From Escherichia phage ECO111 5-P, in the sequence record OR844765: a stretch of 64,000 nt of DNA, one strand, 5' to 3'. Positions 25,024 to 25,080 of this stretch are shown here, one piece after another; position 1 is the stretch's first letter; each line of letters opens with the position of its first letter. The notes beneath the pieces were generated by a model. The model saw only the letters and a list, made by a program, of their open reading frames with translations, made no database searches and was not told the DNA's origin. The translations under genes were made by a program, and so were the position numbers.

Positions 25024-25053
25024 GTTTACTTCCTCCAAGGGTTTTGATATTAT
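25024..25053 (+). promoter_or_regulatory. early promoter (GTTTAC, TGaTATTAT) with CCTCCAAG/CTTGGAGG arms flanking the -10; right arm contains the denV SD
   Basis: Arms 25032-39 and 25068-75; SD GGAGG 25071-75; ATG 25081. Confidence 0.6.
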
Positions 25054-25080
25054 ACATTCATCAACTACTTGGAGGAAATT

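Follow-up and report, generated by a model that had tools for sequence, protein, structure and literature searches.

Why should the Shine-Dalgarno (SD) sequence of denV, the gene for endonuclease V, lie in one arm of an inverted repeat whose other arm is buried in the early promoter of the same gene, and what would this arrangement do to RNAs that reach denV from further upstream? The question was examined in a stretch of 64,000 nucleotides, referred to below as the window, which judging by its sequence comes from a T4-like phage of the RB69 type: the region around denV and regB is 96-99% identical to that of many RB69-like coliphages, the best annotated relative being ATK47, classed as Mosigvirus (Straboviridae, Tevenvirinae). 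The + strand of the window, on which all features given here lie, is equivalent to the minus strand in the T4 map, and the genes of this region run nudE, e, an internal head protein gene, denV, vs.8 to vs.3, regB, vs.1 and vs.

The early promoter of denV has the -35 hexamer GTTTAC (25024..25029), which matches the T4-type early consensus (PMC1524935), and the -10 hexamer TATTAT (25048..25053), preceded by a TGn element (TGaTATTAT). The left arm of the hairpin, TTCCTCCAAG (25030..25039), occupies the -35/-10 spacer and is complementary over all 10 nt (100%) to the right arm, CTTGGAGGAA (25068..25077), which holds the SD GGAGG of the denV coding sequence (25081..25494, ATG at 25081); the -10 hexamer falls in the hairpin loop. 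With a transcription start predicted from the promoter consensus at ~25060, the left arm would be missing from the local transcript. The same design is found at regB, where the -35 hexamer GTTTAC (28577..28582) is followed by the left arm TTCTCCTCTAGTTG (28583..28596) within the promoter spacer, by the -10 hexamer TACTAT (28600..28605) in the loop, and by the right arm CAACTAGAGGAGAA (28614..28627), which holds the SD GGAG, also a RegB cleavage motif, ahead of the coding sequence (28634..29092, ATG at 28634). The full regB repeat (28578-28596 / 28614-28632) extends over 19 nt at 89% complementarity around a perfect 14-nt core, and the start of transcription is predicted by the promoter consensus at ~28612. 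Both promoters thus read GTTTAC-N17/18-TAnnnT with the left arm in the spacer, and the embedded promoter is of the early GTTTAC/TATAAT class in each. The arms quoted in the preliminary description (25032-39 / 25068-75 for denV and 28587-96 / 28614-23 for regB) were recovered at these positions as parts of longer repeats, of 10 and 14 nt, and the promoter elements together with the repeat search confirmed its placing of the left arm upstream of the predicted start and of the SD within the right arm.

Pairing energies and the chance expectation

The structures, their predicted energetics and their position relative to the promoter elements, as well as the compensatory conservation described below, were all computed directly. 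RNA folding gave a minimum free energy (MFE) of -19.1 kcal/mol for the denV stem (z -3.5) and of -21.6 kcal/mol for the regB stem (z -3.7), and in the long leader of either gene the MFE and centroid structures both pair the whole SD. The opening energy, meaning the free energy it takes to unpair positions -16..+3 of a ribosome site, was 15.6 kcal/mol for denV with the promoter included in the leader vs 2.0 kcal/mol from the predicted start, and 19.2 vs 2.7 kcal/mol for regB. Dinucleotide shuffles of the upstream half equalled the observed value in 2 of 300 cases for denV and in 0 of 300 for regB, and the short denV leader beginning at the predicted start was less structured than 198 of 200 shuffles. 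Opening energies and folding therefore predict what had been proposed beforehand, namely an SD that is buried in read-through RNA and open in RNA of local origin.

Part of this pairing would come free if the repeats were a chance product of a pyrimidine-rich spacer facing a purine-rich SD: CTCC opposite GGAG gives 4-5 bp, and dinucleotide shuffles of upstream regions already require about 7 kcal/mol for opening. Among the 98 ribosome sites of the window, each taken with the 80 nt upstream, perfect complements of 7 nt or more occur at the frequency seen in shuffles (7 observed vs 5.2 expected) and a length of 8 nt or more brings a modest enrichment (4 sites vs 1.26 expected), so the 8-mer as first quoted for denV is not significant window-wide. 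The true arm lengths are significant, complements of at least 10 nt being present at two sites, denV and regB, against 0.078 expected. Chance also accounts poorly for pairing that runs past the CTCC/GGAG core with 15 compensating arm sequences in related phages, and for the confinement of the spacer CTCC to hairpin promoters among the GTTTAC promoters. We give a chance origin almost no credence. The possibility that CTCC is a general feature of early-promoter spacers was dropped on the same grounds, this motif being present at hairpin promoters only. A DNA cruciform was judged unlikely, as the loops measure 17-28 nt and G-U pairs are tolerated.

How widely the design is used could be seen from the + strand of the window, where 4 of 18 promoter/gene units with a GTTTAC-type promoter carry it, 2 strongly and 2 more weakly. 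The claim that it occurs at several genes therefore holds in the sense that two small open reading frames (ORFs) join denV and regB as weaker cases, and has to be narrowed to only 2-4 of the 18 early promoters; the promoter-embedded SD hairpin is a minority choice and not a general rule of early promoters. The first of the weaker units (32830..32888) precedes a 59-aa ORF (phrog_2758, ATG at 32886) and comprises GTTTAC (32830-35), the left arm TTCTCCTC (32836-43), the -10 hexamer TATAGT (32853-58) and the right arm GAGGAGAA (32874-81). Its opening energy is 10.4 vs 2.9 kcal/mol, a value reached by 38 of 300 shuffles, and an intrinsic terminator (32792-32818) lies just upstream. The second, moderate unit (46596..46655) precedes a 60-aa ORF (phrog_2283, ATG at 46653) and comprises GTTTAC (46596-601), the left arm TCCTC..ATAGATG (46603-15), the -10 hexamer TAAGAT (46619-24) and the right arm CATCTA..GAGGA (46630-45), with 9.7 vs 0.9 kcal/mol for opening and 9 of 300 shuffles reaching the observed value. 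In other T-even-type phages, the orthologues of this ORF have another and stronger SD stem, TCTCCTCAcGTGTT / AACACaTGAGGAGA.

When the 98 ribosome sites were ranked by the difference in opening energy between long and short leaders, the order was regB, gene 55, denV, gene 1, gene 49, the ORF at 32886, the ORF at 46653 and e, and at each of these top eight sites a recognisable or plausible promoter lies between or at the arms. Seven other promoters, six of them among the 18 units, have an inverted repeat of another kind, which spans the -10 hexamer and leaves the SD free; the right arm of these seven hairpins is the conserved TAGTCCTATC / TAGACCTAT start region. As a separate observation, gene 55, which encodes the late sigma factor, has a similar conserved stem, and a conserved TGCTTTA is situated there ~22 nt from a TATAAT, a spacing unlike that of MotA-box promoters.

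For comparison with stems of known function, the lysozyme gene e offers the late-promoter version of the hairpin within the window itself, and the T4 lysozyme precedent is as the preliminary description had given it (PMC3014915). Both the repeat search and folding recovered the e hairpin reported there at 24229-24254, with slightly wider limits of 24228-55. Its arms, AATACCTCCTAT / GTGGGAGGTATT (24228-39 / 24244-55, ATG at 24256), pair perfectly over 9 nt (24228-36 / 24247-55) and over 12 bp counting G-U pairs, and it folds with -16.3 kcal/mol (z -5.4). The gene 49 hairpin is also present (42759-90).

The same long-minus-short measure was calibrated on T4, using 107 annotated genes from the stretches 1-50 kb and 59-68 kb (I-TevI lies outside the stretches scored). 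Against a median of 1.6, the early-promoter set scored 17.8 (regB), 14.9 (motB.2), 13.7 (modB), 9.6 (denV) and 8.3 (mrh.2), and other genes 13.4 (gene 55), 13.4 (gene 49), 13.2 (I-TevII), 11.8 (e) and 6.2 (soc). The long transcripts of e, soc, 49 and I-TevI are translationally silent, the reduction for e being 100-fold (PMC3014915). On this computed scale, the early-promoter stems are predicted to be no weaker than stems of proven function, and motB.2, modB and mrh.2 are, by the same modelled measure, further early-promoter examples in T4.

Conservation of the pairing among T4-like phages

The denV and regB loci used for comparison were taken from IMG/VR and gave 31 distinct T4-like denV leaders and 16 regB leaders. 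In their MFE structures, all 31 of the former and 15 of the latter have a paired SD. One denV leader (L019) retains only the 4-bp CTCC/GGAG core, with weak occlusion and an opening energy of 4.4 kcal/mol; leaving it uncounted, clear occlusion is kept in about 30 of 31. All 31 denV leaders and 15 of the 16 regB leaders are free of left-arm nucleotides 3' of the predicted start, which is weaker evidence than it appears because the local leader is only ~21 nt long for denV and regB and nearly forces any partner of the SD to lie upstream of the start.

The sequences of the arms vary considerably. Spacer-type arms at denV read CCTCCAAG/CTTGGAGG in the window phage, CTCCTGTAG/CTACAGGAG in T4, and CTCCGTTTG/CAAACGGAG or CTCCTGTG/CACAGGAG in further relatives, and a second denV architecture, in which the left arm lies over or just past the -10 hexamer, is represented by GATGTCTTCC/GGAGGACATC, TAGTAGTCT/AGACTACTA and ATGTCCTCC/GGAGGACAT. 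Both architectures hide the SD. At regB, the leader arms TCTAGTTG, TCTTGACTG, TCTTTATG and TGTAAG each occur with their own complement.

That the arms belong together was apparent when leader halves were exchanged between homologues, the mean opening energy at denV being 15.2 kcal/mol for cognate vs 8.2 kcal/mol for swapped halves, and the median at regB 18.6 vs 8.4 kcal/mol. Among 23 helix haplotypes with 15 inner-arm sequences, an average of 4.2 bp was formed beyond CTCC/GGAG, compared with 0.9 bp for non-cognate combinations, in a count anchored on the CTCC/GGAG helix, which leans towards the structure. The earlier remark that the arms differ while the pairing is kept is borne out by these swap tests and helix-anchored counts, between phages as well as between genes. 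Within the helices there are 24 internal G-U pairs vs 5 A-C mismatches, an excess that fits selection on the sense RNA and not on DNA and that is partly due to the constraint on the G residues of the SD. RNAalifold, applied to the aligned regB leaders, missed the helix because its arms shift by 1-3 nt against the conserved hexamers; the evidence for covariation therefore rests on the alignment-free and helix-anchored counts.

A different arrangement was seen at jumbo-phage denV loci, where an intrinsic terminator overlaps the -35 hexamer at the equivalent position and the SD is not occluded; one orthologue of the ORF at 46653 likewise has a terminator over the -35 hexamer and an unoccluded SD. 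Terminators placed there seem to solve the same problem of insulation by other means, and such alternatives fit a requirement for shielding the gene from transcription that arrives from upstream.

Read-through transcription and a proposed early-only gate

RNAs from upstream would have to reach denV and regB for the stems to matter. In T4-type phages, overlapping read-through RNAs are the usual product of most early regions. Read-through of early transcripts is a general mode in T4, in which early promoters are shut off within a few minutes (PMC2988021; PMC3014915), and by analogy we infer that read-through RNA exists in the window phage. The gene upstream of denV, an ORF for an internal head protein (24741..25022), begins with an ATG that overlaps the e stop codon (ATGA) and ends with a TAG at 25020-22. 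Since it is translationally coupled to e through this overlap, abundant late e transcripts should run into denV, and this gene is the likely source of read-through. The terminator scan of the window listed no terminator-like site between the upstream genes and the denV and regB promoters, and an Rfam scan of the whole window returned two tRNAs only.

The most probable reading, to our mind, and one held with reasonable though not full confidence, is that the promoter-embedded hairpins hide the ribosome-binding site, so that read-through RNA would be silent and local early RNA translated. At denV and regB, and less strongly at the two small ORFs, the 5' arm would make use of the tolerance for sequence change in the -35/-10 spacer of a sigma-70-type early promoter, or lie over the -10 hexamer in some relatives, and the 3' arm would be the SD region itself. 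RNA polymerase starting locally would then produce a ~21-nt leader that lacks the 5' arm and leaves the ribosome site open, while RNA from upstream promoters would carry both arms, form a stem of 10-14 bp and be essentially untranslatable at that gene. The silenced long RNAs could be extended early transcripts, middle transcripts, or late transcripts of e and the internal protein gene. In this manner, DenV and RegB would be made only during the short time for which their own early promoters are active, under an 'early-only' gate that would invert the 'late-only' one known for T4 lysozyme. The start sites and the effect on translation are what we infer, and restriction of translation to the proximal early transcript is, as a prediction, strongly supported by computation.

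Stems that occlude a ribosome-binding site and are opened by upstream ribosomes are a classic mechanism of translational coupling, and the upstream stop codons are close enough at both genes, TAG at 25020-22 and TAA at 28570-72, to raise the idea that ribosomes finishing the upstream ORF melt the stem. The left arms start 8 nt (denV) and 11 nt (regB) past these stops, with the -35 hexamer in between, and because of this distance a terminating ribosome should barely touch the stem, reaching its first 1-3 bp at most on the generally accepted ribosome footprint. Protein levels in T4 speak against coupling as well, for RegB reaches a plateau from 5 min on, at a time when the product of vs.3, just upstream of regB, rises about five-fold further (PMC9697503, Table S3). 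Coupling of this kind appears highly improbable. In the same data, the products of vs.1 and vs, just downstream, keep rising to 30 min, accumulation on the two sides of regB lasting to 20-30 min overall, and ModB is flat from 3 min. For the early-only gate, the RegB plateau is supportive and not decisive, because self-cleavage of the SD by RegB predicts the same plateau.

RegB in fact cleaves the SD of its own mRNA (PMC3014915), and its motif, GGAG in the SD followed by an A-rich tract, is present at both denV and regB, where folding predicts the GGAG to be single-stranded in the short transcript only. The exposed GGAG of the short transcript might thus also be a RegB target, by which the pulse of synthesis would be sharpened. 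The same motif in the right arm permits another explanation, in which the stem is an element of RNA stability or processing, protecting the 3' end of the upstream message or shielding GGAG from RegB or RNase E, and its overlap with the SD is incidental. A stable intergenic stem could block 3' exonucleases, and the seven other promoter hairpins of the window exist without hiding a ribosome site. Incidental overlap is hard to reconcile with an SD that stays within the helix in practically every variant of denV and regB (weakly in L019) and in both architectures, though the rest of the arms varies; a pure 3'-end stabiliser needs no SD inside, and burial of the SD at 15-19 kcal/mol would be predicted to block initiation regardless. 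This explanation is unlikely, although it is the one among the alternatives to which we attach some weight.

The early-only gate may extend beyond the two genes discussed. That it is common to a subset of immediate-early genes (regB, denV, modB, motB.2, mrh.2 and some small ORFs) and is evolutionarily maintained across T-even-type phages is a tentative generalisation, plausible and yet a little short of what we would favour. Should it be true, the shut-off of early promoters would amount to a shut-off of protein synthesis despite continued read-through transcription, and promoters inside hairpins, counting the late-only gates of e, 49 and soc as well as the gene 55 stem, would make up a general level of temporal control in T4. 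Part of the mismatch between mRNA and protein timing, which often disagreed in the time-resolved omics study of 2022, where work on translational control was called for (PMC9697503), could also be explained in this way. Provided that the stems at denV and regB act as predicted, the toxic RNase RegB and the DNA glycosylase DenV would be made in a short early pulse even though transcripts of their genes are still produced later, and an e-type gate would be used in both temporal directions. From a practical point of view, such a gate, with the arm that hides the ribosome-binding site placed inside the promoter spacer, would be a compact and portable insulation part, and the natural compensatory variants are ready-made designs for mutational tests.

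Comparison with known systems

Compact promoter-early-stem-loop elements (PeSLs) of phages RB49 and phi1, and the T-even elements at internal protein (IP) loci, share with denV and regB the succession of stop codon, A/T-rich tract, early promoter, stem-loop, SD and ATG (Arbiol et al. 2010, and Repoila et al. 1994 cited therein). The PeSL stem-loop lies between or over the promoter hexamers, and the units are enriched in plastic regions, by small ORFs and IP genes (Arbiol et al. 2010). In the window, denV and regB show this layout, a strong early promoter with an adjacent intergenic stem-loop in a plastic segment. Their stems might accordingly be regarded as parts of a mobile cassette of the PeSL type, serving mainly as a transcription attenuator and as a patch of homology for modular recombination, a role put forward for RB49/phi1 and the T-even IP loci, the more so as Arbiol et al. 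(2010) describe cassettes of early promoter, stem-loop and SD from hyperplastic regions and comparable, AT-richer elements from the IP loci of T-even phages, denV adjoins an IP gene here, and the same gene carries quite different promoter/hairpin cassettes across phages.

The role proposed for PeSLs is insulation by termination, plus recombination, and their stems are G/C-rich (GGGG...CCCC), have been shown to terminate and, unlike those at denV and regB, do not, as described, take in the SD (Arbiol et al. 2010). At denV and regB, the stems are CT/AG-rich rather than GC-rich, and their 3' arm is the SD itself. They are followed by AAATTATG (denV) and ATCAAAATG (regB) and, as there is no U-run after either stem and the terminator scan listed neither, their reading as intrinsic terminators was rejected. 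Recombination, for its part, explains the swapping of cassettes and not the complementarity of the arms in every variant. As the main function of these stems, the cassette reading is quite improbable; PeSL behaviour and gating are compatible, since cassettes may shuffle and still gate translation. The seven window hairpins that straddle the -10 hexamer resemble PeSLs more than the denV and regB stems do.

A similar logic is known from a bacterial insertion sequence. In 1985, Davis, Simons and Kleckner reportedly described fold-back inhibition in IS10/Tn10, by which translation of transposase is inhibited on externally initiated transcripts. Sequence upstream of the element's own start is said to pair with the ribosome-binding site, so that only read-through RNA is silenced and the gene is insulated, much as proposed for denV and regB; unlike these, IS10/Tn10 has no temporal programme, and there is no homology.

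The hairpin must also be set beside RegB autoregulation, which acts on the same GGAG SD and likewise limits RegB to early times (PMC3014915). In autoregulation, the protein cleaves the exposed SD on the short RNA, whereas the hairpin would act in cis on the long RNA and shield the GGAG there. The two are complementary and not alternatives.

In full-text literature searches, no description of SD hairpins at early promoters was found, and an earlier remark in print is possible. Stem-loops before ORFs in the denV region are said to have been noted by Valerie et al. in 1986, and sequestered ribosome sites near motB/mrh, reportedly, by Mosig et al. in 1998. In the 2010 review on post-transcriptional control in T4, e, soc, 49 and I-TevI are named together with homing-endonuclease genes, denV and regB are not, and for the regulation of regB only the promoter and autocleavage are given (PMC3014915).

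The closest relatives of the proposed mechanism are therefore the e-type genes of T4 themselves. In e, soc, 49 and I-TevI, as at denV and regB, the SD and/or AUG lies in a hairpin on transcripts that come from far upstream (PMC3014915), and a promoter at or inside the 5' arm yields a shorter, translatable RNA, as is proposed here (PMC3014915; PMC2330249); I-TevII/III, mobE and segB have been put forward as further cases of this type (PMC3014915; PMC2330249). The e and gene 49 hairpins of the window score like those of denV and regB. In the established T4 cases, the embedded promoter is late (TATAAATA) or middle and the gate delays expression, whereas at denV and regB it is of the early, sigma-70 type, with the 5' arm in the spacer or over the -10 hexamer and a predicted early-only effect. 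What is new here is the early class of the promoter embedded in an e-type gate, the type of mechanism being already known.

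Predicted occlusion of ribosome sites at gene 55, gene 1 and early genes of T4

The ribosome site of gene 55, which encodes the late sigma factor (ATG 49006), is hidden by a long-range helix in the region 48932-49008, formed between the arms AGTATCTC (48932-39) and GAGGTACT (48997-49004). A nested stem, ATAGGTCT/AGACCTAT, lies inside this helix, which also encloses the extended -10 element TGATATAAT (48968-76). The helix is kept in T4 and other relatives, where the arms differ yet remain complementary (CCTCT/AGAGG, TGCCTCTT/AAGAGGCA and GGCCTC/GAGGCC). In T4 omics data, the gene 55 RNA was assigned to the early class and its protein to the late class (PMC9697503). 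The ribosome-site helix may have a bearing on the timing of late transcription.

Strong occlusion was also predicted for gene 1, the dNMP kinase gene (11443-11512, ATG 11510), where the cost of opening the ribosome site was 15.3 kcal/mol in the long, read-through leader vs 2.3 kcal/mol in the short leader; this gene was fourth in the occlusion ranking of the window. The occlusion is formed by TTCCT...AGGAA together with a CATAT/ATATG stem surrounding TATAAT. By the same measure, more SD-occluding early-promoter stems were found in T4 (comparison loci L001/L110), with differences of 14.9 kcal/mol for motB.2, 13.7 kcal/mol for modB, where the left arm is located directly 3' of the -10, and 8.3 kcal/mol for mrh.2. 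All three genes belong to the early RNA and early protein classes in the 2022 omics data (PMC9697503).

Terminators overlapping the -35 hexamer

At four jumbo-phage denV loci (L024, L026, L029 and L032), as well as at one orthologue of the 46653 ORF (L107), no occlusion of the SD is seen, and the promoter -35 hexamer is overlapped by an intrinsic terminator (for instance, AAAGGGTTGACTTCGGTCAGCCCTTTTT with TATAAT after it). The terminator is located about 60-90 nt 5' of the start at the denV loci. This arrangement appears to be another means of shielding the same gene from upstream transcription.

Hairpins at late promoters

The known late-promoter gate of gene 49 (endonuclease VII) was found at 42759-42798, with the late promoter TATAAATA (42759-66) adjoining the left hairpin arm ACCCTTATCT (42766-75), followed by the right arm AGGTAAGGGT (42781-90) and the ATG at 42796. 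The e hairpin region (24216-24244) carries the variant late-promoter motifs TATAAGTA, AATAAATA and TATAAACG as candidate promoters; in T4, this region instead has two TATAAATA boxes, both perfect.

The segment 32169-32818 is a moron-like cassette; apparently, a late gene flanked by direct repeats was inserted into an early region. Its 27-nt terminator (32169-95) has a second, 93% identical copy at 32792-818. A late promoter TATAAATA (32197-204) and a ribosome-site hairpin, with the left arm ATATCCTT (32202-09) and the right-arm region GAGGATAT (32221-28; paired portion AGGATAT), precede an ORF of 185 aa (ATG 32229; phrog_2143, function unknown).

Inverted repeats straddling the early -10

At seven GTTTAC promoters in the window (12957-12983, 13334-13363, 17495-17518, 20068-20095, 22010-22035, 37471-37498 and 47313-47339), an inverted repeat straddles the -10, its right arm being the conserved start region TAGTCCTATC/TAGACCTAT. 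Hairpins of this class, commoner than the SD-hiding stems, do not contact the SD and leave ribosome-site accessibility unaltered. Several are located upstream of internal-head-protein genes with the N-terminus MKTY.EF.. (genes of this type start at ATGs 13013, 13386, 24741 and 25825). Two tRNA genes were detected with Rfam at 15155-15226 and 15258-15331; the equivalent place in a related annotated phage holds tRNA-Met and tRNA-Arg. The -10-straddling hairpins are similar to the PeSL (promoter-early stem-loop)/IP-locus elements.
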